A DNA stretch of 49,702 bases from a virus (lineage: Duplodnaviria; Caudoviricetes): positions 1 through 49,702 of IMG/VR virus record IMGVR_UViG_3300043765_000026. The stretch is one strand, 5' to 3'. The translations under genes were made by a program, and so were the position numbers. The notes below the pieces were generated by a model that had not been told where the DNA came from, ran no database searches, and saw only the letters and a program-made list of their open reading frames with translations. This document shows, one piece after another, positions 32,793 to 49,702 of the stretch (its first letter is position 1; each line of letters starts with the position of its first letter).

Positions 32793-35700
32793 ATGAGCGG
32801 CGGCGGCGGTTCAACCCAGCAAACGACAACTCAATCGGGCCCACCGCCACAGGTCCTGGCGAATTACCAGCAACTGACCGGGGCGGCGACCTCGCTGATG
32901 GGGAACCCGCTCAACTTCTACGGCGGGCCGATGGTCGCCGGCTTTACGCCGGACCAGCAGGCCGGGTTCAGCGCCACCGAGCAAGCCGCCGGGTCCGCGG
33001 CCCCGTTCATCAACGCCGCCGCGCAGGAGTTCGGTCAGGCGACGACCCCCTTGTGGAACCAGTTGCCCAACATCAGCGGCCAGATGCCGACCTTGGGCAA
33101 CCAGGGTGCGCAGGGCATCACCAGCGGCATGACGAGCGCCGGCACCGCCGGCGGGATCGCCGCGGGTATTCCGGGCGCGGTTTCGCCCTACCAGGCGGCG
33201 GGCACGAGCTACAACGTCAACCCGTATCTGTCACCCTACACGCAGAACGTCACCAGCGCGCTGCAGGGCTTGTTCAACCAGCAGAACGCGACGCAGCAAT
33301 CCCAGGTCATGGGCAACGCCGCGGCGGCGGGAGCGCTGGGCGGCGATCGCCAGGCGGTGGCCCAGGCGCTGACCGCCGGGCAGCAGCAGACGACCGAAGC
33401 GCCGACGATGGCGAACGTGCTGCAGTCGGGGTTCCAGCAGGCGCAGCAGGAAGCCAACACCCAGCAAGGCTTGCAACTGCAGGCGGGGCAACTGGGGCTG
33501 GCCGGTCAACAGGCGGCGCTGCAGGGCACCTTGGGGGCCGGACAACTGGCATTAGGGGCCGGACAGGCCGGATATGGCGAGTTCAACCAGCAGCAGCAGC
33601 AGCAACTGGCGGCGAACGAGGCCAATGCGTGGCTGGGGTCGCAGGCCGGGTTCGGCCTGGCCTCCTTGGGCCAGGAAGCTCAGACCACGGGCCTCCAGGG
33701 CGCCGGTGCGCTTGAAGGCATCGGCGGGATGCAGCAGCAGCTGGCGCAGGAGCAACTCAATATCCCGGCGCAGCAATTCGCCGCGACGCAAGCCTACCCG
33801 TACCAGCAACTGGGGTTCCTGTCGCCGATCGTCGAAGGGACAGGGTCGCTGTCGGGCGGGCAGAGCAGCACGACCTATCCCGGCCAGAGCACCGCCTCGC
33901 AGATCGCCGGTCTGGGGCTCACCGGGCTTGGCGCCTACGGCATGCTCAACAACGCCGGAGTGTTCGGCGGCGGCGGCAGCGACTTCGGCGGCTCGGTGGC
34001 CGAGGACTTCGGCGGCGGCGGCGATGTCGCGGCGGGTTTTGCCCCGATATCGGCCAAGCGCGGCGGGCGCATCGCGCTGCGTGGCGGTTTTGCGGGGGGC
34101 GGTGGCGTGGGCGGCATGGGGATGCCTGCCGTGCCGTCGGTCAGCGACCCGTTGATCCCCAACCTGACCGGGCCGTTCCAGACCGGCGCGGCTGGTGCCG
34201 GTGGCGGGGCGGACATGCTGCCGAAGGTGGAGAGCGACATTTCGAGCATGGGCAGCATGGGGATCCCGGGGGCGCCGCTCGACATCAACCTCGGGTACAT
34301 CCCGCAGGCCGGGCCGCCGAAGCCGGGTCAGGGCGGCAACCTCAGTCCGATGCAGCCCGACGTCAGCCAGACCACGACGACGCAGACCGCCGGAGCCGGC
34401 CCTCTGAGCTTCCTCGGGCCGTTGCTCAGCATCGGCAAGTTCGCGGCCGGGTTCTTGAAGGAAGGCGGACGCCCCGGTTTTGACGATGGCGGTGACGCTT
34501 CGTCCGGCTCGACCCCCGGCATGGGCGGCGACCTGACCGATCCCACCAGCGGCGGCATGGGGTTGCCCAAGGTGCTGAAGGCGGGGAGCGCGCTCGATGA
34601 GCTCGTGCATCCCGGCCCGGCGGTGCGGGGAAGCGGCCCGCCAGCGCCACCCCAGGTGCCGGCGGGTGCCGGTGGTCAGGGCGGGTTCGGTCTGCCGCAG
34701 GCGCAGAGCCTGCTTGGCGGGATGAAACAGGTGAGCGGGATGTTCGGCAAGGGCTCGGGCTCGAGCTCGTCCAGTGACGGCGCGGCCGGTGACTTCGGCG
34801 GCGGACCGGACGGGCAGGCCAGAGGCGGGCGCCCGCGGCGCCAGGCCGGCGGGGCGGAGTTCGCCGGCGCGTCCCAGGTGCCGATCTCGGTCGCCTCGCA
34901 GTTCGGTGGGGCGCCGCCGACGATGACGATGGCGCTGCAGAACCTGCAGGAGCAATCGCTTGAGCGGTTGCAGGAAATGGCGTCGCAGTTCCCGCCGACC
35001 TCGCAGCAAGGGCAGATGATCGCTCGGGCGATCGCGATGAAGAAGGGCTCGCCCGGAACCGGCACCACGCCGGCAGGGCTGCAACCCCCCTCCGCCGGCG
35101 GCATGGGGCTGGGCGCGCTTGCCGCGAGCCCGGCGCAGACCGCGGCCGGTCCGCAGCAGTCCGGGGGCAGTTTCGGCGGCACCTCGCACATCCAGGGCGA
35201 GGCCGAGGGCGGGGCGGTCGACGGCGAGCCCGGCTTTGTCACCCCGGACGAGCTCGACCCGACGCCGCAGGTCGATCACAGCGGCCCGACCGTCAGGGTG
35301 CATTACCGCTCCGAAGGGCACTCATTGGATCTGGGCCTGCCGTCGGTGCCGGAAGCCGCCGACCACGAGCCCGACGACGCCTTCGCCCAGCCGGGGCACC
35401 TCCACCGGGTGGTCGGCGGCAGCACGTCGGAGAACACCTTTGCTGCGCCGGTCACCGCACCGAACGGCATCCAGTTGCCGCAACTCAACACCACCGACAT
35501 CGGCACCCTGGCGACCAAGGATCCGCTGACCGGCGGCAATTACACCGCCGGCGGCGGCTCGGGGAACTGGATGGCGCCGTTGGCGCAGTGGCAACCGCCG
35601 GGGACGTACCTCGACAAGGCCACCGGCTCGATGGTCTTCCCGTCCTTCAGCGGGTTTGTGCCGGGCATGGCGCCGATCGCCTCGGCTTACGGCTTTAACA

Positions 35701-38700
35701 ACGTCACCTCGTTCGGCATGCCGGCCTACCAGGCACCGCCGGCGGGCGGGACCGGCGCCACCGGCGGCACCAACACCAACTATATCGATCCCAGCACGGT
35801 CAACGATCCGGGCTCGCCCGCCTACGCGCAACAGCAGAACATGGACATTGGCGCTGGCGGGGGCGGCGGCAAGCGCGGCGGGCGCGCGGGACGCTTCCAG
35901 TCTGGCGGCGAGGCCAGCGCTCTCGACGCCGCCACCGTCGCCGATCTGCCCAGCGGCGATGAGGCGCCGCCCGACCTGTCGAAATTCGGCATCGCGCCGC
36001 CGTCGCCGGGTTTTATCGGTTTCGGGCAACCGTCGAGTTCGGCGGACGTACCGGAGATCGCGAAGCCGAAATCGTTCCCGCTGCGCGGTGAGGACATCCC
36101 GACGCAAGTCGGCGGCTTTGTGAAGAACCTCTCGGCCACCGACATCGCGCGCGAGGCCGCACAGAAGGCGGCGGGCAACCCGTGGCAGGCGATCTCGTCG
36201 GACACCGACCAGCCCGCACCGGCTCCTGCCGCTGCGCGGGACGAGGGCGACGAGGCGGCGGCGTTCAAGGGCTTTCCGGGACCGGCGAAGGCGCCATCCG
36301 GGCCGATCGGCATGGGCGGAGACATTACGCCGGTGGTGACGCCGAAGAAGGAAGGGCCGGTCGGCATGGGCGGGGATATCATCCCGGCCGGGGCGCCACC
36401 GGAACAGGTCGCCGCGGCTTCGCGAGCCGAGCCGCCGGAACCCGATGAGGCCGCAGCCTTCCGCGGCATGGGCGTGAAGCCGATGGGCAGGCCGGATGTC
36501 AGCGCCGTCACGGAGCAACCCGCTCCGACCACGTCGTTCCCGCCGCCGCCGCCGTCGCCCAAGACGGCGGAAGTGCCGGCACAAAGGCGAGCCGCCGCAG
36601 TCACGGCACCGGCTCCCGCGCCGGCTCCAGCGCCCGCACCGGCTCCGGCTCCCGCACCGGCTCCCGCTCCCGCACCGGCTCCCGCACCGGCTCCGGCAGC
36701 AGCACCCGCACCCGCAGCGCCGGCAGCGACACCAGCAGTCACGCCCGCAGCGCCCAGGCGCAAGCCGATCATCACCGGCGACAGCCACGGCGTGGGCTTG
36801 AACACGATGGGGTGGACGGTCAGACCGGGCCAAGGTCCGTTTGACGGCACCACGGCCAACCATCCGCGCTCCTGGGTCGACCCGGCCACCGGCCAGGCTC
36901 ATCCCGAATACGCCAACATGGATGCCGAGGTCGGGCGCAACCCGTACCAGGAATACCAGTACATCACCTCGCGGCCGGATGGTTACTGGCGCGGGCGCGA
37001 CGTTGTGCTGTCGACCGGCGTTGCCAATGACCCGAGCGCCGCCGGGGTCGCGATGGTGCCGTGGCAGATCGAGGCGCTGCGCGAGCGCGGGGCCAACATC
37101 ATCGGCATCACCGGGTTCACCAATCGCGGTGCGCAGGGCACCAACATGCAGCCGGTCTCCGACCAGGTGTCGCAGTACGCCCGTGATGCGGGAGTACCGT
37201 TTGGCGGCATCTGGTCGGGCGACATTCGTCCCAACGATCCGGTGCATCTGACTGCGGCAGGCTACAACAAGGTCGGCACGTGGTACGCGCAGGAAGCCGC
37301 CAACCCGCGCTCTCAAGGCCAGGCCACGACCCCGGCCGAGCAACTGGCACCGGGGTTCGCGCGCGATCCGAACACGTTCGGTCTGACCTATAACGGGAAA
37401 CCGCCCGACGGTTACATCGGCGGGCAAGAACCCGGCGGCGGGGCGGTTCCCTATTGGAACACCGGCAACGGCCAGGTCATCACCGGCAGTCAGGCGCAGG
37501 CGCCGGGACGCGACAATATCGTCAAGCCCGGCGAGCCCGGGGCGCTGACCCCTGCCGACGTGCAGCGCCCGGACATCCCGCAGCCCTATCCCCGGGCCGG
37601 CACCTACGGCCCGGTGCAGACCGAGGCAGGGTCGGTGCCGGTGCGCAACGCGCAGCAGATTATGAAAGCCGTAGATGATGCCAAGGCCACTCCTGCCGTT
37701 AAGCAGGCGCTCTTAAATCAGGTGTTCTACGAAGGCGGTTTCGGTAGCGAGTGGAACCCCTCGGGCATCAAGGGCGAGCACAGCTACGGCCACTGGCAGT
37801 TCAATGCGGCCGGCGAATTGCCGGGTTATCAGCGTTGGCTGCAGACCAACAATCCCAATAATTTAGACCCGCACTCGAGCTATCTGCAGACGCAGTACGT
37901 GCTGTACCGCATGGAGCAGGAGCATCCCGGCTTCTCGCAGATGACCGATGTGCATCAGATCACTGACCTCCTCAACACGCGGTTTGAGAAGTACAAGGGC
38001 TACGGCCCGGGTCAGCGCTACGGCAACCTGGAGAATGCCCAGGCGCTGATGAACGGCGACTGGTCGGCGATGAACCGGGCGGTGCATGTCAATGCCGAGC
38101 CCGGCGGCGGTATCGGCGAGAGTGGTCCCGGCACCGGGTTCAACGCGCCCGGGTTCAGAACTGCCGGCGGTGAAGGCGGCGAAGGCGGCATGGGCTATCC
38201 GGGCGGTGGCGGCTTCGGCGGCGGCTTCGGCGGTGGCGGCGGCGAAGGGGGCGGCAACTGGTACGACCGGATGATGCGCAGCCCGGGCTTGCCGCTGTTC
38301 CTCGCCGGGATCTCGACGATCGGCTCCAAGAACCCGAATGCCTTGGCCGAGGGCATAAAGGCGGCGGCACCGTATTTCACCGCCGGCGAGCGGGCCGAGG
38401 CGGCGGAAACCCGCTCAGCGGCAAGCCAACAGGTCGCGGCGGCGAAGCAGGAGGCCGCGGCGGGGGCGCTGGCGCAGAAAGGCGCGGCGCAGGAGGAAAC
38501 CGCACGCCATCACCTGGCAGAGGAACAACAGGCGGCGGCGAACCTGCAGGAGAAGTACGACAACATCCAGCGCGAGATCGCGGCCGGCAACACCAGCGCG
38601 GCGCTGCAGGAACAGAAGCTGGCAACCGAGAGCGCGCTGAAGCAGGCGCAGATCAATATCGCCACGCTGAACTCGCAGCTAAAGGCGATCAGCGTCACCA

Positions 38701-39197
38701 AGCCGATGCCCGGGTATGGCCCGAATGGTCAGCCTGGTAACTGGCAGTACGATCCCGACAAGGGCTGGAACTTCCAGGAAGGTCCCGGTGTCGGCAAGCC
38801 GGCGGCGCAGAATGCCTACGAGTTAAAGCTGGCCGAGGGTCGCAAGCTCTACCCGAACAACGAGCAAGCGGCGGCGGACTATGCGGCGGGCCAGAGCGGG
38901 TTCAAAAACGCCAGCGAAATGGACCACGAGATCAACGCGGCGGAGGCGAACCTCAAGACGCTGGACTTCTACGCCAATGCCTCGCCGGAAGTGCTGCGCC
39001 AGGCGGCGATCCGTTACGTGCTGCAGAACCGGTCGGTGCAGGCACCAGGCGCCGCGCCGGCAGCGGCTCCGGCTCCGGCGCGAGCCACCGGGGTTCCGCC
39101 AGGGGCGACGGGCCAGCGCAAGAACCCGGATGGCTCGACCACCTATTACGTGCCGGGGCAGGGGCAGGTAACGGTCCCGGCGGCACCGGCGCAGTAA
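32793..39197 (+). CDS. Large internal virion/DNA-ejection protein with SGNH-hydrolase-like and tail-lysozyme-like domains
   Basis: Pilot-protein-type N-terminus (VAGFTPDQ, Y.SPYTQNV, YPYQQLGFLS); GDSH..VVLSTG..ND..DPVH; YEGG..SYGHWQF..QTQYVL; x-x-GG repeats. Confidence 0.85.
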   Translation: MSGGGGSTQQTTTQSGPPPQVLANYQQLTGAATSLMGNPLNFYGGPMVAGFTPDQQAGFSATEQAAGSAAPFINAAAQEFGQATTPLWNQLPNISGQMPTLGNQGAQGITSGMTSAGTAGGIAAGIPGAVSPYQAAGTSYNVNPYLSPYTQNVTSALQGLFNQQNATQQSQVMGNAAAAGALGGDRQAVAQALTAGQQQTTEAPTMANVLQSGFQQAQQEANTQQGLQLQAGQLGLAGQQAALQGTLGAGQLALGAGQAGYGEFNQQQQQQLAANEANAWLGSQAGFGLASLGQEAQTTGLQGAGALEGIGGMQQQLAQEQLNIPAQQFAATQAYPYQQLGFLSPIVEGTGSLSGGQSSTTYPGQSTASQIAGLGLTGLGAYGMLNNAGVFGGGGSDFGGSVAEDFGGGGDVAAGFAPISAKRGGRIALRGGFAGGGGVGGMGMPAVPSVSDPLIPNLTGPFQTGAAGAGGGADMLPKVESDISSMGSMGIPGAPLDINLGYIPQAGPPKPGQGGNLSPMQPDVSQTTTTQTAGAGPLSFLGPLLSIGKFAAGFLKEGGRPGFDDGGDASSGSTPGMGGDLTDPTSGGMGLPKVLKAGSALDELVHPGPAVRGSGPPAPPQVPAGAGGQGGFGLPQAQSLLGGMKQVSGMFGKGSGSSSSSDGAAGDFGGGPDGQARGGRPRRQAGGAEFAGASQVPISVASQFGGAPPTMTMALQNLQEQSLERLQEMASQFPPTSQQGQMIARAIAMKKGSPGTGTTPAGLQPPSAGGMGLGALAASPAQTAAGPQQSGGSFGGTSHIQGEAEGGAVDGEPGFVTPDELDPTPQVDHSGPTVRVHYRSEGHSLDLGLPSVPEAADHEPDDAFAQPGHLHRVVGGSTSENTFAAPVTAPNGIQLPQLNTTDIGTLATKDPLTGGNYTAGGGSGNWMAPLAQWQPPGTYLDKATGSMVFPSFSGFVPGMAPIASAYGFNNVTSFGMPAYQAPPAGGTGATGGTNTNYIDPSTVNDPGSPAYAQQQNMDIGAGGGGGKRGGRAGRFQSGGEASALDAATVADLPSGDEAPPDLSKFGIAPPSPGFIGFGQPSSSADVPEIAKPKSFPLRGEDIPTQVGGFVKNLSATDIAREAAQKAAGNPWQAISSDTDQPAPAPAAARDEGDEAAAFKGFPGPAKAPSGPIGMGGDITPVVTPKKEGPVGMGGDIIPAGAPPEQVAAASRAEPPEPDEAAAFRGMGVKPMGRPDVSAVTEQPAPTTSFPPPPPSPKTAEVPAQRRAAAVTAPAPAPAPAPAPAPAPAPAPAPAPAPAPAPAAAPAPAAPAATPAVTPAAPRRKPIITGDSHGVGLNTMGWTVRPGQGPFDGTTANHPRSWVDPATGQAHPEYANMDAEVGRNPYQEYQYITSRPDGYWRGRDVVLSTGVANDPSAAGVAMVPWQIEALRERGANIIGITGFTNRGAQGTNMQPVSDQVSQYARDAGVPFGGIWSGDIRPNDPVHLTAAGYNKVGTWYAQEAANPRSQGQATTPAEQLAPGFARDPNTFGLTYNGKPPDGYIGGQEPGGGAVPYWNTGNGQVITGSQAQAPGRDNIVKPGEPGALTPADVQRPDIPQPYPRAGTYGPVQTEAGSVPVRNAQQIMKAVDDAKATPAVKQALLNQVFYEGGFGSEWNPSGIKGEHSYGHWQFNAAGELPGYQRWLQTNNPNNLDPHSSYLQTQYVLYRMEQEHPGFSQMTDVHQITDLLNTRFEKYKGYGPGQRYGNLENAQALMNGDWSAMNRAVHVNAEPGGGIGESGPGTGFNAPGFRTAGGEGGEGGMGYPGGGGFGGGFGGGGGEGGGNWYDRMMRSPGLPLFLAGISTIGSKNPNALAEGIKAAAPYFTAGERAEAAETRSAASQQVAAAKQEAAAGALAQKGAAQEETARHHLAEEQQAAANLQEKYDNIQREIAAGNTSAALQEQKLATESALKQAQINIATLNSQLKAISVTKPMPGYGPNGQPGNWQYDPDKGWNFQEGPGVGKPAAQNAYELKLAEGRKLYPNNEQAAADYAAGQSGFKNASEMDHEINAAEANLKTLDFYANASPEVLRQAAIRYVLQNRSVQAPGAAPAAAPAPARATGVPPGATGQRKNPDGSTTYYVPGQGQVTVPAAPAQ
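36604..36755 (+). repeat. (Ala-Pro)n coding tandem repeat
   Basis: Degenerate GCACCG/GCTCCC hexamer array encoding APAPAP. Confidence 0.85.
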
Positions 39198-39198
39198 C

Positions 39199-42100
39199 AT
39201 GCCGCCGCTCGACAACACCCCGTCACAAGACCCGGATGCGCTTCCGGCCGGGTTTGAGCCGATCCCGGCGCCGCCACCCGCGCCGGCTCCGGCACCGACG
39301 CACAGTGATCTGCCGGCCGGGTTTGAACCGCTCCCTGGCGCTGCGCCAGCCCCGGCCCCGGCGGACCAGGGGCCGCTCATACTGGTGCCGGGGGAGACGG
39401 ACGCGCAGGGCAACGTCATCAAGCAGGGCACGACCAACGACGAGATCTACGCCGCGCAGAAGGCTGGGCGAAAGGTCTTGCGACCTGGCGATACGGAGCC
39501 GCTCGAGCCGGTCCCGCCAAAGCCCGATGACATCGTCAAGCAGCAGGGCTGGGATCTCTCCGGCTACCAGAAGCCGCCGGAGCCGCCGGGCGTTATCAGT
39601 GAGTTCGGCCAGGCGCTGAAGAAGGGTGCCGTCGGCAGTCTGACGGCGACCGGGAAAGCTGTCACCGGGCAGGCATTCACCGATCAACCGGCCGGCGCGA
39701 AGCCGCCGCCACAGGATCCTGTCGACAAGCTCCTCAACACGCCGATCACCGAGGGCTGGTCGGACCCGCACTGGTGGATCACGCATATCGGCTACGGCGC
39801 GGGAGGGATGGCGGTCCCGGGTGCAGCGGCAGCGGCCGGGTTTGCCATCGGCGGTCCGCTCGGCGGCTTTGCCGGCGCGGCCCTTGGCACGGGCATCCAG
39901 GAACTGTGGCCGGCATACCAGCAAGCCCGCGCCGAGGGACTGCCCCATGACCAGGCGGTCGATCGCGCGATCGGCGACAGCGGTATCGCCGGGGTCACCG
40001 GCGGCCTCATGCAGGCGATCCCCGGCATGTCGTTCTTTGGCCGGGACGCGGTCGGCGCACTGCGGCGCCCGATCAGCGAAGCGCTGTCGCGGCTGTTTGC
40101 CGCGCAGCCGGCGGTGGCGGTCGCGGGCGAGGCCGCGACCCAAGCCACGCACGGCAAACTGATTACCCCGGAACAGGCGGCGGAGACTGCAGCCACCACC
40201 GTTGGCGGGGCGCTGCCGTTTGAGGCCGCGCATATGTTGCGTCCTGGCGAACGGCCGCCGGCAAGGGCGACAGGAGCGCCGCCGCCCGGTGCGCCCGGGG
40301 CACCCCCCGCAGCACCGGGAGCCGCACCGGCCCCAGCTGGCGGGCCTCCTGCAGCGCCGCCAGGGGGAGCGGCGCCAGCGGCTCCGGCACCCGGAGCACC
40401 ACCGGCCCCGGGTGACGTCATCCATCTGCCGATGGCGCGCGGTGTCGTCCAGCCGATGACCGTCGAGAGCGTCACCCCCGAGGGCTATGTCAACCTGCGG
40501 GATCCCGACGGCAACATCCACACGATGACGGCGGACGACATCGCCGCACGGCAGCAACCGCCTCCCGGTGCGCCGCCGCCCGCCGCGCCCGCCGGGCCGA
40601 CAGCCCCGGCAGAGCCGCCGCCGACCGCGCCCGGTGCGCCAGGAGGTGCTGCGGTAGCGCCTCCCGTCGCGCCACCCACGGCCCCGCCGACAGTAGCGCC
40701 GCCGGAGCCCACACCACGCCCGCCGGGGCCGGAGGGAGCCCAACCACCGCCGACAGCCAACGAGACCCTGCAGGGCATCGGTGCGGCCGAAGCGGGTGCG
40801 GCACAGGGCCGACCGCCGCCACCGGCGGCACAGGAGACGGCGGCGGCCGAAAGCGAACTGGGAGCGCAGGCGCAACCGACCCAGCGCCCGCCCGAGCCGA
40901 CCCCACGCCCTGCAGCGCCGACGGCTCCTCCCACGGCGCCCGCAGCCGAGCCGGCGGCAGAGCGACCTCCCTCTCAGCCGCCGGCCGCGCCTGCCCAGCC
41001 GCCGATCCAGCCGAGCGAGGTGCCCGCCAACGTCTTCGGCGGCGACCTGCACAACGCGCTGCAGCGGGTCTTCGGCCAGGACCCGGCACTGCCGAGCGTG
41101 TCGCTGCACGACCAGGGCTTCGCGCCGGATGAGGTCACCGCACTGCAGCGGGCCGGCATGGCGAACCCTGACGGCACGATGACCCGCGACCAGTTCGGGC
41201 AGTACCAGCAGGAGATCGCCGCGCGGCAGGAGGCGGGGCGCAAGGCGTGGGAAGAGCGGCAGAAGCAGGCCGAACCGCCGACACCGACGCACGAGGAGCC
41301 GTCGGAACCAGGCGTCCCCGAGACGATGAAGAACCTGCCCGACTTCATGCGCGACCGGGTGGGGCAGGATTACCAGCGCGCCGCGCAACACCTCCTCGTC
41401 GATCCCATTCGCGACGCCGGTGAGCGCGGGCTGACGGCACAGGAAACTGTGGCCGAGCTCGGGACGAAGCTCGACCCGATACGCCAGCAGGCGCAGGCCC
41501 AAGGCTGGGATGGCGACGCCGCCGCCTACAACCTGGTGCGCAGCGTGCGCGCCTACCTGGGGATCGAGCATCTGATCCCGTCAGCGGTGCCGGGGGCCAA
41601 GCCACCCGAAGCACCGCCGGCAGAGCCCCAGCAGAAGATGCGGCTTTACCGCGGCATCGGCGGCGGACCGTCAGGCGAGGGGGCGCCGGACGGCGGATGG
41701 TTTACGACCGACCCGACCAAGGCGGCGGGCTACGGCAAGGTCCATTACATCGATGTCGATCGCGATGACCTCAAGCACTTCGCGCAAGGGCATGGCGGGC
41801 CGGACGAGTATTTCACCGACAACAAGGAGATCATCAACCGTTCGCGCCCGCTCGAGGAAGCCGCGCCGACACCTCCTGCGCCTCGCGAAGACGAGGTCGA
41901 CGCCGAGCGCAAGAAGCTACCGGAAGGGTGGAAGATCGATTACCGCCCAGACGAGGGTTACCGGCTGGTCCGACCCGACGGGACGATCGAGACCAACGGC
42001 CCCTCGGCGGTCGGGATGTCGGAGATCGCGCACGAGGCTGCGGGCACGACCCCGATCCCGCCGGTCACGGTCAGCAATCTGCCGCCGGAACCGAAGGGAC

Positions 42101-45100
42101 CGCCGACCCCGGAAGAGATCCACCGGGTCGCCGAACTGGCGTTTGGCGCCCACCGGCACGGCGGCGCGGACGCGGCCCGTGTGGTCTTCGATGAGGCCCG
42201 GAAGCAGGGCTGGCCGCCGGAGGCGCTCGATCAGTTGCGCGAGCTCTTCGCGCGTCGCCTCGAGGACGCCGGCGTCGATTGGAAAGATGCGCAGGACGAG
42301 GCCGGCACCCGTCCCGGGACACCGACCCACGAAGCGCCGCCGGCGCATCCCAATACACCGGTCGTTACCGAAGAGACCCACACCAAGACCGGGCAGCAGA
42401 TCTATGTCGTCCGCTTCCCCAAGGGGAAGCCGTCGATCGATGGTATGGGGCCGCAGGCGCGCGGGCTCGGCGGGTATTGGTCGGCCTATCAAGGCCGGGG
42501 GATGAAGCCCGGCTGGATCTTCAAGGCGCGTGACGCGGCGGATCGGTTTGCCGCCTGGGCGACAGAGCGGCTCGGAGCGCCGCCAGGCGCCCCTGAAGCG
42601 CCGGTCGCGCCGCCTGAACCGACACCGCCTGCGCCCGAAGCCCCGGTCGGCCCGGAGACGCTGACCGCCCCGCAGCAAATCGCACAGGACGTCGCCGCGG
42701 CCCGCGCGCAGTTGCTCGCCAACCCGACCGGGCCCAAGCCCCAGGTGATGTTCCACGGTGTCGATCTGCGCATGGAGAATGCGATCGGGTCGACCCGCAG
42801 CGGCACCGGCGAGAACGGGGTGCCGTGGTCGGTCCAGATGCCGGCGGATTATGGCGAGATCAACCGCACCAAGGGGGCCGACGGCGACAAGGTCGACGCC
42901 TATCTGGGCCCCGACTACACCAGCCAGAAGGTCTTCGTCGTCGACCAGAAGAACCTCGACGGTTCCTTCGACGAGCACAAGGTGATGCTGGGCTTCCCCG
43001 ACTGGCCCTCGGCGCAGCGCACCTACCTTGCCGGGTTCTCCGACGGCTCGGGCGACGCGCGTCTCGGCAACTTCACACCGATGAATATCGATCGGTTCAA
43101 GGACTGGCTGGAGAAGGGCGACACCACGGCTGCGACCGAGCCGCAGATACCGCCCACCGACCGGCCGCATGTCGATGTTCCACGTGGAACACAGGCTCGT
43201 CTCCCGCAGCACCGGATCGCCGACTGGGTCGAAACCCAGTTGGGCCGCATCCGCCCGGAAGGCGAGGCGGCGTTCACCGCGCCCCGGTTGCTGGAGATTG
43301 CCGAGCGCGAGTACGGCTCGCCGCTGTCGGAGGGCAAGTTCACCCGCCCCGACATCTACGACGCGATGGAACTGGGGGTGAACCAGTACATCCGCACCCA
43401 TGCGATCGACTACCGCCCGGTCTTTGAGGCGCCGACCGAGAAGATGATCGTCGGCGCGCTGGAAAAGCTGAAGCTCGAGTTGCCCACCCAGACGGTGCGC
43501 GACGCCGAGAAGGAACAGATGCAGCAGTTCTCGACGCCGCCCGACTACGCGCACGTGGCGGCGTGGGTGGCGAATATCGGGCGCGGCGACAAGGTGATGG
43601 AGCCGTCAGCCGGCACCGGTTCCTTGGTGGTGCCGGCGATGAACGCCTCGCCGGCGGCGATGTACGTCAACGAGTATTCGTCCCGCCGCCAGCCGCTGGT
43701 CGAGAGCCTCAACCCCACGGGGGCGTGGCACGAGAACGCCGAGCATCTGCACGCGATCCTGCCCGAGGACGTGAAGCCGACCGTGGTGGTGATGAACCCG
43801 CCCTTTTCCCAGGCCGGCGAGCGGCTGCAGGGACGGCGCGATCTCGACATCGGCGCGACGCATGTCGAGCAAGCCTTGGAGCGGCTCGAGCCCGGCGGCC
43901 GTCTGGTGGCGATCGTCGGGCGCGGCATGGGCGAGAACCTGCCGCAGGAGGGCGGGTTCAACGCGCCGACCGGCCGGCACTTCGCCGATTGGTGGCGGCG
44001 CATCAAGTCCCAATACGACGTGCGCGCCAACATCGGCATCCCCGGCGAGGTCTACGGCAAGTACGGCACTGCCTTTGGCACCCGCCTCTTGGTGATCGAC
44101 AAGAACGCGCCCAGTGGGCGCCCGACGGTCATCGAGGAGGCCAGGAACCTCTACGACGCGATCGACAAGCTGGCAGGGGTGAGGAATGAGCGACAGCCGC
44201 TTGCAAGAGCTCCCGGTGAACAGGTGGCCGGTCAACCGCCTGGCCCTGGCGCGGCTCCTGGAGGCGGGGGAGCGCCCGGAACCGTACCTCCCCTACCTGG
44301 TCCAACTCCTGGTGGCGGGGTTCGAGGCGGAGCTCCCGGTGCCGGGCCAGGGGAACCAGTTCTGGGCGGAACTAAAGAACCAGGCGTACCAACTGTGCGA
44401 CCCCCAACTGAACCCGGTGAGGGTGGTCCGGTGGCTCCTGGGGAACCCGGAGGCGGGGGACCTAGCCCAGCAGAGCAACTCGACGGCGCACCTCCTGGAG
44501 ACGGCGTTGACCTGGCGCCAGGCGGCTCAGCGCCTAATGGAAGTGTTCTACGACCGCCAGGCAGCGCAGGATCCATACTTCCAGGTCCCGGCCGTCCCCC
44601 ACCACTAGACGAGCCGCCGCCGGTCGCGGCGACGCTCGACCAGGTGGCGGCGGATCCGGCAGGGGCGCTGACCGAAGAGGTCTACGAACCCTACAAGCCG
44701 CAGCGCATCCGGGTCGCCGGCGCCAAGGAGCATCCCGGCAAACTGGTGCAGTCGGCGGCGATGGCCTCGGTGCTGCCGCCGCCGGTCGACTACAAGGTCC
44801 GCATCCCGCAGATGCTGATTGACACCGGCGCGCTGTCGGAGGCGCAGCTTGAGGCGACGACCTACGCCGGCGCGGCCCACGAACAGATGCTGACGCAGGG
44901 GGTCGAGGTCGAGCGGGTGCCGCTGCCCGACCGGCAGCAGTACATCATCGACGAGTTCAAGGACGGCGAGAACAAGCCCTATGGCATGGGGTGGATGCTG
45001 CAATACTCGCTCGGCACCTGGATGGCGAAGACCCCGCCGGGCACCGAGCCCTACCGGGAGTTTCGCCCGCAGGGCAACGACATCTGGTCGCGCGAACAGG

Positions 45101-48100
45101 CGATCCACCGCGTGGCGCGCGAGATCGCCGGCGACTTTGAGGGCGACCTGTCGCGGCCGGGGGCCAAGCCGCCGGCCTCGGACTACCGCCGCGGCTACTT
45201 CATCGGTGACGGCACCGGCGTTGGCAAGGGGCGCGAGATCGGCTCGGTGTTTCTCGACAACATGATGCAGGGCCGCAAGAAGGGTCTGTGGGTCTCGGAA
45301 AAGCGCCCGCTCCTCAACGACGCGCAGCGCGACTGGTCGGGTCTGGGGCGCAAGGCCAAGGAGGTTTTCCCGATCTGGAACACCAAGCCGGGCGACGATA
45401 TCGCGGTCAAGGAAGGGATCGGCTTTATCAACTACGACAGTTTGAAATCGGCCGAACAGAAACCGACCGAGCGGGCGGTCGTCAAATACGACGGCACCCC
45501 GAACGAGGTCGACATCCTCGGCAAGACGCCGGACGGCAAGTTCCGGGTGCGGCGCTATGAGGGCGACCCGGAACGGATCGTCGATCCCAAGGAGGTGAAG
45601 GTCATCAAGGAGCCGGGGCAGACCCGGGTCGAGCAGATCGTCAAGTGGCTGGGGAAGGACTTCGACGGGGTCATCGCCTTCGACGAGAGCCACAACATGG
45701 GCAACTCGACGCAGGAGAAGGACGGCCAGGGACGCAAGAAGAACGCGGCGGCGAAAGCGGTTGCCGCGGTGGCGCTGCAGGATGCGCTCCCCAAGGCGCG
45801 GGTGCTCTACGTCTCGGCGACCGGCGCCACCGAAGTGAAGAACCTCGCCTACATGAAGCGCCTGGGTCTGTGGGGGCCGGGCACCGCGTTCCCCAACCTG
45901 ACGAGCTTTCAGACGCAGATCGAGGCCGGCGGCATCGCGGCGATGGAGCTCGTCTCGCGCGACATGAAGGCGATGGGGTCCTACATCGCCCGCAACCTCT
46001 CCTATGACGGCGTCGACTACGACCGGGTCGAGCACAAACTCAGCCCCGACGAGATAGAAGGCTACGACAAGATGGCCGAGGGCTGGCAGAAGGTGCTCAA
46101 CAACATGAACGCCGCGCTGGCGATCACCGGCCAGAGCAACGTCAAGCACATCAAGTCCAGCATCAACGCCCAGTTCTGGGGCGGGCACCAGCGGTTCTTC
46201 AACCAGGTCATCACCTCGATCCAGATGCCCAGCGTGCTCGAGGCCATCCGAAAAGACCTGGCGGAGGGGAAGCAGGTCGTCTGCCAGCTGGTCAACACCA
46301 ACGAGGCGACGGCGAAGCGCAAGCTGGCGGCGCAGGACAAGGACGAGGAACTGGAGGAGCTCGACCTGTCGCCGATGGACCAGTTGACCGAACTGGTCGA
46401 CAAGGCGTTCCCGACGCAGAAGTACGAAATGAGGGTCGACCCGGACGGCAACGAATACTGGGTGCCGGTCTTCGACAGCGAGGGCAACCCGGTCGAGGAT
46501 CCCAAGGCGGTGGCGCTGAAGAAGCAGCTTATGAGCGAACTGGAGCTCTTGCGCCACGTCGTGCCCTATGGGCCGCTCGACCTCTTGATGAATGCCTTCG
46601 GTCCCGATCAGGTCGCCGAGGTGACGGGGCGCACCCAGCGCCTGGTCTACCGGAAGGACGAGCGCGGCGAGCGGGTGAAGGTGCTGGAGCGCCGTTCGGG
46701 TTCGGCCAATGTCAACGAGGCCAACGACTTCCAGAACGGCAAGAAGAAGATCCTGGTGTTCTCCCAGGCCGGCGGCACCGGGCGCTCGTACCACGCCGAC
46801 AATACCGCGCCCAGCAAGGGCGCGCGGCGCTCGCACTACCTCTTGCAGGCCGGCTGGCGGGCCGATGCGGCGATCCAGGGGTTCGGGCGCACCCACCGCA
46901 CCAACCAAGCCTCGGAGCCGATCTTCCACCTGGTGACGACCGACCTCTCGGGGCAGAAGCGGTTTATTTCCTCGATCGCCCGCAGGCTCTCGCAACTGGG
47001 GGCGCTCACCAAGGGCGAGCGCCGTGCCGGCGAGAGCGGCATGTTCTCCTCCAACGACAACCTCGAGAGCCCGGAAGCGATCGCCGGCCTCCACAACTTC
47101 TTCCGCGACCTCTACCTGGGCGACATCGAGGGGATGAAGATCGGCGAGTTTGAACAGGCGACCGGGCTGCAACTGCGCGACAGCAGCGGCGGCCTCTTAA
47201 AGAATACGCCCGACATCCGGCAGTTCCTCAACCGCCTCCTGTCACTGAAGTTCAACCAGCAGAACACGGTCTTCGCGCATTTTGAGAAGCGCTTGCTCGA
47301 CGCCAACGAGAACGCGGCGGCGAAGGGCACACTGGATGCCGGCACCGAGACGCTGAGGGGCGACCGCATCGATAAGGACGAGGAGCGCACCGTCTATACC
47401 GATCCCGCGAGCGGCGCCGAGACCAAGTACGTGCGCTTGAAGGTATCCAAGAAATCCAACCCGATTGCGTTCGACGACGTTCATGCCGGGCGGCGCATGA
47501 CGCGCGGTGAAGTGCCGCACATGTTTATCCGCGACAAGCAGACGGGGAGCGTCTTCGCCGTCACCGCCGGCCCGGATGGCGCGGACGAGAAGACCGGTAA
47601 CAAGGTGCCGCAGTACCGGCTCACTGACCAGACCCACAACCTGTTGCGGCCCCGCCAGAACATCGACGGGGTACAAGGGCGCCAGCGCTACGAGCGGATC
47701 GAAGGAACCGGTTTGGCGCTCCCGGGGTCTTCGGAGGTGGCCCGGGCGCGTGAGTGGTGGGACGAAGCGCTGACGAAGGTGCCGGAGTACGAAACCCGGG
47801 ATCACCACCTGATCACCGGCGCGATCCTGCCGATCTGGGACCGGCTCGGCGGCGCGACCAAGGTGCTGCGCACCCAGGTCACCGACACCGGCGAGCGCAT
47901 CCTGGGGCGCTCGGTGGAAGAGGGGAAGATCCGCGAGACGCTGACGAACCTGGGCGCCGACGACGCGATGAAGCAGTACACGCCGGAAGAGGCGGCGCAG
48001 CGGATCATGGGCGAGGGCGCGGTCGCCCAGTTGGCGAACGAGTGGCGTATCCGCCGGGCGCGGGTCGGCGGCGAGAACCGCATGGAGTTGCTGGCGACCG

Positions 48101-49702
48101 GCAGCGCCGCGTGGACGATGCGCGAAGAGTTCAAGGCGATGGGCCTCTACCAGGAGGGTTCGCGCTGGTACATCCCGACCGGCGCCACCCAGGTGCCGGT
48201 GCTGACCCGGTTGCTGCAGCGCCGGCCGATTGTCGACATCACCACCCCGGCGGAAATGGCCTCGCGTCAGAGCGAGGAGCTCGGCGAGCCGCAGGACCTG
48301 GCGTCGCGCAAGGTGCTGCCGACCGACGACCCGGCCATGATCGCGATCATGCAGCAACTGTCGGCGATCACCGGCGGCCAGTACCGCGACATGCGGCGAT
48401 CCTACAAGAACTACGCCGCAACCCGTGGCGACACCAGCGGCCACGCCACGGCGCGGCAGTGGGTGATGAACAGGGGCGAGGCGACCGGCAACGAGCACTA
48501 CGTCGCGCTCGACCAGCAGGGCAACATCCACGGCGCCGGCACCACCGGCAAGTTCGACGCGATCACGTTGCCCGAAAACCTCTCGCAGAAGATGCGCTTT
48601 GGCAGTGTGCCGATCGACATCATCCACAACCACCCGACCGATGTGCCGATCAGCGACGTCGACCTGACGCTCCTGCCGAACCCGAGTACCCGCAGCATTT
48701 CGTCCCACTCGCCGTCGGGCAAAATGGACACGGCGCGGATCGCGCCCTTTGGCCGGCAGTATTTCGGCGCGATGCCGCTCGAGACCGCGCAGAAGACGAT
48801 GAAGGCGCTGGCTAACCAGGCGGAAAAGTCTGTCGCCCCCGTGATCCGGCGGCTGATCCGGCAGAAGAAGGTCACCTGGCTCGAGGGCAACGAGCTTCTC
48901 TTCGACATGCAGAACCGGGTGCTGGACGCGGCCGGTCTGATCGACTACGAGACGTCGCGGACGCTCGACCCGAAGCTCTATCCCCACCTTCGGAATGCGA
49001 CCAAGGCGATCCTGCAGAAGATCGGCCAGGGCGCGCAGTTTTCATGGAACGTTAACGATCCGCAGGGCCTCAAGAAGGTCTGGGATGCAGAGGATAGGCT
49101 GAGCGATGCACTTAATCACTCCACCCGGACCGTTCTCCCCGACGCGCAGCTTGCTCGACTTTCTCAAGCGGATGAAGGCAATCCCCCCGGAAGAGCAGGA
49201 CCTGCAGGTCCGAATGGCGATCGAGACCGTGGAGCGGCGCCTGCAGGAGCCGGAACACCAAGTAGCCTTGCGGCAAGGGCGTCTGACGAGCTAGGCGACG
49301 CCGCCGCTCCCGGCGACGACCCGCTCGACGAGGGCACCCGCGAGACGATCCGCGCGGCCTTGGGCGAGGGCCCGCCCGGCGGCGCCGGCTGGACGCGCGA
49401 GTTCTTCGACATGATGGGCATCCCGCCGGAGGGTGCCGGCGCGCAGGGGCGCGACTTCAACATCATCAACAAGGACTTCACCACCCCGCAGACCTGGGGC
49501 GCGATCGATCCGCTGTCGACACCGAAATTCCGGGCCGAGCTCGCCAAGTTTCGCGACGCCAAGGCGCTCGCCTACAAGTACCTGCAGGAGGGGCTCGCCA
49601 GCTGGCAGGGCAAGGACCCGGCGCTGTGGAACAAGCTCTTCTCGGCGATGGAGCTCCTGACGCTCGACGGCACCGAGGTGCCGCTGGACGGGCGCGCGGT
49701 CA
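39199..49702 (+). CDS. Giant polyvalent virion-associated protein (>3500 aa, 3'-truncated): ART-like, InPase-like, N6-adenine MTase, strawberry-notch SF2 helicase, JAB-like
   Basis: ATG 39199; no frame-1 stop in the stretches translated, and no frame-1 ORF in the track after this point. Motifs: RLYRG..WFTTD..A.GYG..E (~41640-41850); DYGEI..T.GADGDKVD..FDEHKVMLGF (~42740-43120); QQFSTP..EPSAGTG..MNPPF (~43520-44110); GDGTGVGKG, DESH, SATG, QGFGRTHR (~44670-47450); E..HNHP..S..D (~48490-48720). Confidence 0.92.
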   Translation, partial: MPPLDNTPSQDPDALPAGFEPIPAPPPAPAPAPTHSDLPAGFEPLPGAAPAPAPADQGPLILVPGETDAQGNVIKQGTTNDEIYAAQKAGRKVLRPGDTEPLEPVPPKPDDIVKQQGWDLSGYQKPPEPPGVISEFGQALKKGAVGSLTATGKAVTGQAFTDQPAGAKPPPQDPVDKLLNTPITEGWSDPHWWITHIGYGAGGMAVPGAAAAAGFAIGGPLGGFAGAALGTGIQELWPAYQQARAEGLPHDQAVDRAIGDSGIAGVTGGLMQAIPGMSFFGRDAVGALRRPISEALSRLFAAQPAVAVAGEAATQATHGKLITPEQAAETAATTVGGALPFEAAHMLRPGERPPARATGAPPPGAPGAPPAAPGAAPAPAGGPPAAPPGGAAPAAPAPGAPPAPGDVIHLPMARGVVQPMTVESVTPEGYVNLRDPDGNIHTMTADDIAARQQPPPGAPPPAAPAGPTAPAEPPPTAPGAPGGAAVAPPVAPPTAPPTVAPPEPTPRPPGPEGAQPPPTANETLQGIGAAEAGAAQGRPPPPAAQETAAAESELGAQAQPTQRPPEPTPRPAAPTAPPTAPAAEPAAERPPSQPPAAPAQPPIQPSEVPANVFGGDLHNALQRVFGQDPALPSVSLHDQGFAPDEVTALQRAGMANPDGTMTRDQFGQYQQEIAARQEAGRKAWEERQKQAEPPTPTHEEPSEPGVPETMKNLPDFMRDRVGQDYQRAAQHLLVDPIRDAGERGLTAQETVAELGTKLDPIRQQAQAQGWDGDAAAYNLVRSVRAYLGIEHLIPSAVPGAKPPEAPPAEPQQKMRLYRGIGGGPSGEGAPDGGWFTTDPTKAAGYGKVHYIDVDRDDLKHFAQGHGGPDEYFTDNKEIINRSRPLEEAAPTPPAPREDEVDAERKKLPEGWKIDYRPDEGYRLVRPDGTIETNGPSAVGMSEIAHEAAGTTPIPPVTVSNLPPEPKGPPTPEEIHRVAELAFGAHRHGGADAARVVFDEARKQGWPPEALDQLRELFARRLEDAGVDWKDAQDEAGTRPGTPTHEAPPAHPNTPVVTEETHTKTGQQIYVVRFPKGKPSIDGMGPQARGLGGYWSAYQGRGMKPGWIFKARDAADRFAAWATERLGAPPGAPEAPVAPPEPTPPAPEAPVGPETLTAPQQIAQDVAAARAQLLANPTGPKPQVMFHGVDLRMENAIGSTRSGTGENGVPWSVQMPADYGEINRTKGADGDKVDAYLGPDYTSQKVFVVDQKNLDGSFDEHKVMLGFPDWPSAQRTYLAGFSDGSGDARLGNFTPMNIDRFKDWLEKGDTTAATEPQIPPTDRPHVDVPRGTQARLPQHRIADWVETQLGRIRPEGEAAFTAPRLLEIAEREYGSPLSEGKFTRPDIYDAMELGVNQYIRTHAIDYRPVFEAPTEKMIVGALEKLKLELPTQTVRDAEKEQMQQFSTPPDYAHVAAWVANIGRGDKVMEPSAGTGSLVVPAMNASPAAMYVNEYSSRRQPLVESLNPTGAWHENAEHLHAILPEDVKPTVVVMNPPFSQAGERLQGRRDLDIGATHVEQALERLEPGGRLVAIVGRGMGENLPQEGGFNAPTGRHFADWWRRIKSQYDVRANIGIPGEVYGKYGTAFGTRLLVIDKNAPSGRPTVIEEARNLYDAIDKLAGVRNERQPLARAPGEQVAGQPPGPGAAPGGGGAPGTVPPLPGPTPGGGVRGGAPGAGPGEPVLGGTKEPGVPTVRPPTEPGEGGPVAPGEPGGGGPSPAEQLDGAPPGDGVDLAPGGSAPNGSVLRPPGSAGSILPGPGRPPPLDEPPPVAATLDQVAADPAGALTEEVYEPYKPQRIRVAGAKEHPGKLVQSAAMASVLPPPVDYKVRIPQMLIDTGALSEAQLEATTYAGAAHEQMLTQGVEVERVPLPDRQQYIIDEFKDGENKPYGMGWMLQYSLGTWMAKTPPGTEPYREFRPQGNDIWSREQAIHRVAREIAGDFEGDLSRPGAKPPASDYRRGYFIGDGTGVGKGREIGSVFLDNMMQGRKKGLWVSEKRPLLNDAQRDWSGLGRKAKEVFPIWNTKPGDDIAVKEGIGFINYDSLKSAEQKPTERAVVKYDGTPNEVDILGKTPDGKFRVRRYEGDPERIVDPKEVKVIKEPGQTRVEQIVKWLGKDFDGVIAFDESHNMGNSTQEKDGQGRKKNAAAKAVAAVALQDALPKARVLYVSATGATEVKNLAYMKRLGLWGPGTAFPNLTSFQTQIEAGGIAAMELVSRDMKAMGSYIARNLSYDGVDYDRVEHKLSPDEIEGYDKMAEGWQKVLNNMNAALAITGQSNVKHIKSSINAQFWGGHQRFFNQVITSIQMPSVLEAIRKDLAEGKQVVCQLVNTNEATAKRKLAAQDKDEELEELDLSPMDQLTELVDKAFPTQKYEMRVDPDGNEYWVPVFDSEGNPVEDPKAVALKKQLMSELELLRHVVPYGPLDLLMNAFGPDQVAEVTGRTQRLVYRKDERGERVKVLERRSGSANVNEANDFQNGKKKILVFSQAGGTGRSYHADNTAPSKGARRSHYLLQAGWRADAAIQGFGRTHRTNQASEPIFHLVTTDLSGQKRFISSIARRLSQLGALTKGERRAGESGMFSSNDNLESPEAIAGLHNFFRDLYLGDIEGMKIGEFEQATGLQLRDSSGGLLKNTPDIRQFLNRLLSLKFNQQNTVFAHFEKRLLDANENAAAKGTLDAGTETLRGDRIDKDEERTVYTDPASGAETKYVRLKVSKKSNPIAFDDVHAGRRMTRGEVPHMFIRDKQTGSVFAVTAGPDGADEKTGNKVPQYRLTDQTHNLLRPRQNIDGVQGRQRYERIEGTGLALPGSSEVARAREWWDEALTKVPEYETRDHHLITGAILPIWDRLGGATKVLRTQVTDTGERILGRSVEEGKIRETLTNLGADDAMKQYTPEEAAQRIMGEGAVAQLANEWRIRRARVGGENRMELLATGSAAWTMREEFKAMGLYQEGSRWYIPTGATQVPVLTRLLQRRPIVDITTPAEMASRQSEELGEPQDLASRKVLPTDDPAMIAIMQQLSAITGGQYRDMRRSYKNYAATRGDTSGHATARQWVMNRGEATGNEHYVALDQQGNIHGAGTTGKFDAITLPENLSQKMRFGSVPIDIIHNHPTDVPISDVDLTLLPNPSTRSISSHSPSGKMDTARIAPFGRQYFGAMPLETAQKTMKALANQAEKSVAPVIRRLIRQKKVTWLEGNELLFDMQNRVLDAAGLIDYETSRTLDPKLYPHLRNATKAILQKIGQGAQFSWNVNDPQGLKKVWDAEDRLSDALNHSTRTVLPDAQLARLSQADEGNPPGRAGPAGPNGDRDRGAAPAGAGTPSSLAARASDELGDAAAPGDDPLDEGTRETIRAALGEGPPGGAGWTREFFDMMGIPPEGAGAQGRDFNIINKDFTTPQTWGAIDPLSTPKFRAELAKFRDAKALAYKYLQEGLASWQGKDPALWNKLFSAMELLTLDGTEVPLDGRAV
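43176..43191. promoter_or_regulatory. Canonical-type parS palindrome TGTTCCACGTGGAACA
   Basis: Perfect 16-bp palindrome matching the chromosomal parS consensus; lies in an interdomain linker. Confidence 0.75.
44186..44608 (+). CDS. 140-aa helical protein overprinted (+1 frame) inside the giant ORF
   Basis: SD GTGAGGA next to the ATG; GC-rich third positions move to this frame while the host frame becomes a Pro/Gly linker with A/T-ending codons. Confidence 0.75.
   Translation: MSDSRLQELPVNRWPVNRLALARLLEAGERPEPYLPYLVQLLVAGFEAELPVPGQGNQFWAELKNQAYQLCDPQLNPVRVVRWLLGNPEAGDLAQQSNSTAHLLETALTWRQAAQRLMEVFYDRQAAQDPYFQVPAVPHH
49106..49294 (+). CDS. 62-aa helical protein overprinted (+1 frame) inside the giant ORF
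   Basis: GAGGATAGG upstream of the ATG; same local switch of codon bias; amphipathic helices. Confidence 0.7.
   Translation: MHLITPPGPFSPTRSLLDFLKRMKAIPPEEQDLQVRMAIETVERRLQEPEHQVALRQGRLTS

Follow-up and report, generated by a model that had tools for sequence, protein, structure and literature searches.

A conserved gene nested out of frame between the methyltransferase and helicase domains of a giant DarB-like phage protein

Does the Pro/Gly linker between the methyltransferase and the helicase of a giant phage protein conceal a second gene, and what might the product of such a gene do? We examined this question on a 49.7-kb phage record (49,702 nucleotides; hereafter the window means this whole stretch). 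PHROG matches place terminase, portal, head, and tail genes upstream of a giant open reading frame, which itself matches DarB-like and DNA methyltransferase families in PHROGs, and InPase, AAA_34, and Helicase_C_4 in Pfam. The features referred to below are as follows.

39199..49702, plus strand: gene for the giant DarB-like polyvalent protein (at least 3501 aa, open past the end of the window), downstream of the virion-structure genes
42736..43113, plus strand: InPase domain, residues 1180-1305 of the giant protein (PF18823, E 2.9e-39)
43180..44160, plus strand: N-terminal helical region and adenine methyltransferase (motif I MEPSAGTG at about 43597, NPPF at about 43795; weak methyltransferase matches)
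44175..44182, plus strand: Shine-Dalgarno (SD)-like AGGGGTGA of nested gene 1, within the last methyltransferase helix and overlapping a +1-frame TGA
44182..44658, plus strand: Pro/Gly linker in the host frame, for the most part nested gene 1 read in -1
44186..44608, plus strand: nested gene 1, coding from ATG to TAG for a 140-aa seven-helix protein (family A4), in +1 relative to the open giant frame 39199-49701
44659..47349, plus strand: strawberry-notch-like SF2 helicase (AAA_34 N-lobe to about 46029; Helicase_C_4 at 46573-47349)
48430..48840, plus strand: domain taken to be RadC/JAB-like (invariant E, HNHP, and S..D)
49106..49294, plus strand: nested gene 2, coding for a 62-aa protein (family 2), in the +1 frame 3' of the JAB-like domain, with GAGGA upstream

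The host gene encodes a polyvalent methylase-helicase dyad: an NPP(Y/F) adenine methyltransferase joined to an SF2 helicase within a large multidomain protein of the kind found in phages and conjugative elements. The archetype of such dyads is P1 DarB (PMC5512222, in the parts of that paper available). Both share the same plan of helical N-domain, NPPF adenine methyltransferase, SF2 helicase, InPase, and location in a virion gene region, but the window helicase is of the strawberry-notch type. The main text of PMC5512222, taken apart from its supplementary files, contains no match for "overlap", "linker", or "low complexity", and mentions no nested genes. Two insertions in the N-lobe of the window helicase (about 44900-45170 and about 45480-45630; about 65 and 40 aa) are missing from most relatives. 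Immediately 5' of the giant gene lies a 2134-aa Gly/Ala/Pro-rich open reading frame (32793-39197); it contains a (PA)n tract and, near its C-terminal third, enzyme-like segments, and a Pfam search with it returned nothing above cut-off.

A preliminary description of this DNA had proposed that the +1 frame of the linker carries an SD sequence, an ATG, and G/C-ending codons, while the giant frame stays open as a Pro/Gly linker with A/T-ending codons between the methyltransferase and the helicase. We could confirm both points. At 44186-44608 a complete open reading frame with its own start signal lies inside another open frame, as expected of an embedded same-strand gene. A per-frame scan of the giant gene gave GC contents of 0.74, 0.40, and 0.90 at the three codon positions of nested gene 1. 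Across the same stretch GC3 of the host frame dips to 0.41 versus 0.86 expected from the encoded amino acids, with T and A in 0.27 and 0.32 of third positions versus 0.08 and 0.07 gene-wide. In three other Pro/Ala-rich linkers of the giant gene GC3 goes down to 0.56-0.71 only. A milder dip (0.56) is seen over a Pro/Ala linker at 40249-40400, where a +1 open reading frame (40289-40459) is Arg/Pro-rich and not protein-like.

These features could in principle be a by-product of a Pro/Gly linker, with no gene involved. When the linker was recoded synonymously, 4141 of 5000 recodings (83%) kept 140 codons open in the +1 frame, and the giant gene has other long stop-free +1 stretches (one of 310 codons and two of 162-173). 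Since the open frame is within chance, we dropped its length as evidence, and the case for nested gene 1 is made by codon position bias, conservation, and selection. Selection was measured in both frames. Compared with its two closest loci, the window differs at the three nested codon positions by 0.37/0.29/0.44 and 0.40/0.31/0.42, so that the third position of the host frame is the least variable. In eight independent pairs drawn from 75 loci, changes that are silent in the nested frame and alter the host protein occurred at 0.425 per opportunity, versus 0.17 for the reverse. This difference indicates purifying selection on the nested frame, as expected of an embedded gene, and together with a family of 75 members, a confident structural model, and free-standing copies (all described below), it makes the absence of a gene the least credible of the explanations considered.

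How would ribosomes reach the nested frame? One answer is a +1 frameshift from the methyltransferase, which would make the nested sequence the C-terminal domain of a short form of the giant protein. The nested frame begins exactly where the methyltransferase ends, and in one relative (L126) the two frames are fused, probably through a sequence error or in a decayed gene. However, a +1-frame TGA at 44180-44182 shuts the frame one codon 5' of the ATG, and the related locus L001 has a +1-frame stop likewise one codon ahead of its nested ATG, which argues against frameshift entry. The best start is preceded by an SD match of at least four bases in 71 of 75 family members. Among 711 control starts the figure is 19%, though taking the best of up to 21 codons inflates this contrast. 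We consider a frameshift very improbable. Nested gene 1 is likely translated from its own ribosome-binding site within the message of the giant gene, as its start signals suggest; a search for a sigma-70-like promoter in 43400-44800 found none.

The preliminary description had suggested looking for homologs nested at the same place. With nested gene 1 as query, five proteins at 50-54% identity were found among 100 candidates, and in two close homologs on long contigs (L001 and L002) the open reading frame is nested in the +1 frame between methyltransferase and helicase. Further loci were fetched by way of the helicase and not the nested frame, in three rounds: 6 loci, the best 80 of 139 viral stretches, and the best 80 of 524 genome stretches. 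A helicase start was present in 168 of the 171 loci, and these 168 gave 108 dereplicated hosts, of which 4 without an in-frame NPPF were set aside, so that the presence of NPPF in all 104 hosts counted is an outcome of this selection. Of the 91 long-linker hosts, 87 passed a filter that required a +1 open reading frame with raised GC3 and a length of 80 aa or more. Two more (L103 and L106) are intact on inspection, which brings the count to 89 of 91 in these helicase-fetched best-N samples; L121 and L125 are the two without it. None of the 13 short-linker hosts with NPPF carries a nested frame. The filter relies on a codon signal, whereas family membership, established by phmmer links, does not, and 75 of the 87 filtered frames form one family with that of the window, leaving 12 unlinked. 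These 12 hosts (L010, L022, L054, L056, L058, L062, L063, L079, L087, L090, L113, and L118) carry, at the corresponding position, an acidic nested open reading frame without a match to the family profile; they share one part of the helicase tree, where they are intermingled with family members.

The family profile matches 104 of the 171 loci, and in 102 of these 104 the match is nested in an open host frame, a share biased by the fact that loci were fetched by helicase or nested frame. The hosts span GC3 values of 0.29-0.91 and include both phages and conjugative plasmids. In the helicase tree (100 rows) the 13 hosts without nested gene make up one side of one branch, a pattern that on this unrooted tree means either one loss or one gain. 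A profile search of the full protein library returned 95 proteins at E<=0.001. Genome searches gave family matches in 2 of 401, 2 of 138, 2 of 401, 20 of 301, 2 of 141, and 1 of 7 genomes; most are nested, including 19 of the 20 new loci from the 301-genome search. No match was found in a profile search of genome contigs with a narrow alignment, nor in GenBank phages for either nested gene 1 or a related helicase. In two further loci (L003, 47-295; L004, 1090-1227) family fragments remain while the host frame is broken, and the L004 fragment adjoins a resolvase. From this conservation in distant relatives, at the same spot beside methyltransferase and strawberry-notch domains and with start, SD, and open +1 frame preserved, and from the selection on the nested frame, the earlier idea of a real second gene hidden in the linker gains strong support. 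By these sequence criteria nested gene 1 represents a real but unannotated gene family: it has no PHROG or Pfam model, and a RefSeq-derived plasmid table annotates the host gene and not the nested one. Our literature search found no report of it, although coverage of subscription papers was thin and absence from print is not implied; the available part of 10.64898/2026.04.10.717836 has no bearing on the nested gene.

The same description called the gene overprinted, a label that is probably reversed, because it is the nested frame that has normal codon use and the stronger constraint. The linker thus looks like the passenger frame of nested gene 1. We assign this polarity tentatively, since free-standing copies seem to descend from nested ones and the host tree has no root. 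The host frame is likewise preserved, because after recoding of the nested protein it rarely stays open by chance (P<0.05 in 75 of 87 cases; P 0.16 for the window). The remaining frame is almost never open after such recoding (median probability 0), which accounts for the finding that all 124 protein-like nested candidates lie in +1 and none in +2.

We then considered the product itself. An AlphaFold2 model of the 140-aa protein has seven helices, with a pLDDT of 84.8 from 6 sequences and 91.4 (pTM 0.86) from 79. Conserved in the family are a hydrophobic core and, near the N-terminus, the motif N-x-x-P-L-N-x-x-A-x-x-x-L; among 79 rows no residue is invariant and none suggests catalysis. Net charge is negative in 69 of the 79 rows (median -4, range -19 to +5). 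With a net charge of -4 for the window member, a DNA mimic of the Ocr type is not favoured there. An embedded spanin like Rz1 was rejected as well, as the host is a methylase-helicase and the protein lacks an N-terminal hydrophobic signal and has its one Cys at position 71. Foldseek found no match at E<=0.001 in PDB or BFVD, which does not prove a new fold; the best VIA results have Z 3.7 (rmsd 3.5, 73 aligned) and Z 4.3 (rmsd 5.7, 86 aligned). The window protein has no family match in Pfam, PHROGs, NCBIfam, or PADLOC. Its 79-member family gives nine scattered single-member Pfam matches; the best PDB sequence match has E 0.13, and the ESM Atlas holds no usable match for nested gene 1 or nested gene 2.

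The giant gene contains at least one more nested gene. Nested gene 2 has GC contents of 0.68, 0.42, and 0.79 in its own frame, and host GC3 falls to 0.41 versus 0.86 expected. Relatives occur in L001, L002, L013, and L122 and as five short database proteins. The domain preceding it is presumably of the RadC/JAB type, a label that we base on a motif known to us and on one weak PDB match (2qlc RadC, E 0.74); a Pfam JAB search gave no match. Among 224 loci the JAB-like domain is followed by family 2 in all five distinct loci, and family 2 occurs nowhere else there; one of the five, L013, is in neither model. Judged by this co-occurrence, nested family 2 is tied to its own JAB-like domain. Further short SD-led +1 open reading frames, picked by eye, stand at domain ends in other hosts (L118, 6169-6360; L022, 8292-8525; L058, 7989-8132; L035, 8046-8243; L090, 7716-7892; L006, 7647-7832; L008, 13110-13277; L031, 6810-6950; L048, 1719-1850). 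From its motif the domain ahead of the L118 frame looks ART-like; Pfam supported none of the JAB, ART-like, or ParB-like labels for domains preceding short nested frames, that of L118 included.

Relatives of both nested genes also occur outside giant genes. Two database proteins known from protein alone (P0008 and P0107) each consist of family 2 fused to family 1, the family of nested gene 1. Two more, known in the same way, are an XRE HTH fused to a family 1 domain (P0040) and a repeat of the family 1 domain (P0032). We looked for the contigs of P0008, P0107, and P0040 and did not find them, and a plasmid search for P0107 gave no match. In genomic context there are three free-standing copies on two contigs. 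Two stand in tandem on the minus strand of L218 (G856:C26, 2765-4335), each with a different N-terminal extension, flanked by an XRE HTH gene and HTH_17/ResIII helicase genes; this contig appears to be satellite-like. The third, P0093 (L219, G426:C61, 15525-16103), is 3' of a resolvase and a DUF4258/HTH pair, with primase and terminase genes nearby, a setting that we read as prophage cargo. Its -1 frame is still open over the domain, perhaps a trace of nested origin. In L202 both flanking parts of the host gene are gone and the nested frame is intact. Identity between a free or fused copy and its best nested match is 38-66%, and these copies scatter among the nested subfamilies of a weakly resolved tree (134 columns). 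Because they are placed at several points, this tree suggests repeated escape of the nested gene into free and fused forms.

What, then, may nested gene 1 do? Our main reading, to which we give a probability of roughly 50%, is that its product is a putative cognate inhibitor of the adjacent methylase-helicase module. Internal initiation would supply one partner per giant chain. The folded helical partner would bind and restrain the module in the producer cell, as an immunity protein does a toxin domain, and would stay in the donor, so that the enzyme would be freed only after injection or transfer. The nested gene may then be captured by other elements and give them orphan immunity to giant proteins that come in. 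This reading draws on an analogy. In toxin-immunity systems an enzyme domain is followed by its own small gene, partner domains occur fused to each other, and orphan copies are found in mobile DNA. The same grammar favours a cognate inhibitor here: a small partner gene lies directly 3' of, and is specific to, an enzyme domain, as family 2 illustrates; families 1 and 2 are fused; and partners away from the enzyme include free copies in mobile-element cargo. We also count in its favour the small size, the all-helical model, the net negative charge, and the lack of any catalysis-like invariant residue. The enzyme domains differ from those of toxin-immunity and polyimmunity cassettes in that they are internal to one polyprotein, and the putative partners are nested out of frame.

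Three points count against an inhibitor. The 13 short-linker NPPF hosts without nested gene, all in one clade, imply that the methylase-helicase module can exist without it. The nested family diverges strongly, with a mean column identity of 17% versus about 50% for the enzymes; immunity proteins, for their part, typically diverge fast. Finally, it is not obvious why a protective methylase would need silencing in its own producer. Occurrence of the family in conjugative plasmids implies that its role is not tied to capsid packaging.

If the product is an inhibitor, we favour the methyltransferase as its putative target on the basis of position, with the helicase as second candidate. A conserved Asn12 sits 120-146 host codons past NPPF in all 70 frames (of 87) that carry it, and linker insertions of about 100 residues in L045, L091, and L095 all lie 3' of the nested stop and ahead of the helicase, so that the nested gene stays on the methyltransferase side. 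Mirror-tree distance correlations of the nested protein tip slightly in the opposite direction (rho 0.31 with the helicase, 0.22 with the methyltransferase), though they are too weak to point to a partner domain. A complex prediction with methyltransferase, helicase N-lobe, and nested protein, from which the helicase C-lobe was left out, scored 0.00 with its controls not folded, and so speaks neither for nor against an interaction.

The fixed one-to-one position beside the module would equally suit a folding chaperone, a packaging or transfer adaptor, or a positive subunit of the methylase-helicase. In phage P1, ulx comes after darB, and its 146-aa product has a role in DarB packaging. Ulx is thus similar in size to the nested protein and adjoins a darB-type gene, but it is encoded by a separate downstream gene and lacks profile similarity (hhalign probability 0.1), on which basis we rejected homology. 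A further precedent is lambda Rz1 in Rz, where an entire gene, set in +1 within another phage gene, encodes a functional, positive partner of its host (PMC6139136, in the parts available). Against a cis-acting chaperone or adaptor, free and fused copies far from giant genes are hard to accommodate, and the family is present in phages and conjugative plasmids, whose protein delivery differs. We regard this explanation as a minority possibility, about on a par with independent cargo.

The nested gene could also be independent cargo, such as an anti-defence, superinfection exclusion, or regulatory gene with a target in the host or a rival, for which a permissive linker serves as coding space. Free copies in cargo regions, the HTH fusion, the many linkers with unrelated short +1 frames, and the fact that +1 is the only frame tolerating nesting here are all compatible with this idea. 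But the family is never nested at another position among the selection-biased loci described above, and family 2 is bound to its own domain. We judge independent cargo to be a minority possibility, still worth bearing in mind.

A selfish out-of-frame insertion would have a precedent in ShiLan, a hidden out-of-frame HNH open reading frame inside a phage's DNA methylase gene without stops in the host frame (PMC11855218, in the parts available). The architecture is shared, and L001 (11603-12028) contains a +1-frame DUF559 endonuclease inside a helicase insert that looks intein-like by eye, a hidden nuclease resembling ShiLan. However, ShiLan is a patchily distributed homing nuclease in the third frame, among conserved residues, whereas nested gene 1 lies in +1, between domains, and in nearly all long-linker hosts. 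Its absence is confined to one clade, nuclease family and fold searches gave no match, and the model is all-helical. We therefore hold a selfish insertion to be even less probable than a frameshift.

Compared with Rz/Rz1, where two short membrane lysis proteins overlap and the embedded one is Pro-rich, the arrangement described here is inverted: the embedded protein is folded and the host frame is the Pro/Gly linker (the comparison again covers the available parts of PMC6139136). The host is moreover a 3500-aa enzyme chain with at least two nested genes. Taking the cognate inhibitor as a starting point, we offer a wider proposal that we hold at somewhat less than even odds. Giant injected or transferred polyvalent proteins may be strings of enzyme-immunity cassettes, in which the inhibitor of each domain is hidden in the +1 frame of the next "low-complexity linker" and keeps the weapon safe until delivery, while satellites, prophages, and hosts capture the hidden genes as free or fused poly-immunity against phages.

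Polyvalent proteins are widespread in phages and plasmids. A conserved, unannotated, putative partner of the methylase-helicase dyad makes it testable how their enzymes are controlled before delivery. The finding also indicates that "disordered linkers" in such genes can be shadows of real genes overlooked by gene callers. Should incoming giant proteins be blocked by the free-standing copies, the latter would constitute a new kind of anti-phage or exclusion factor.
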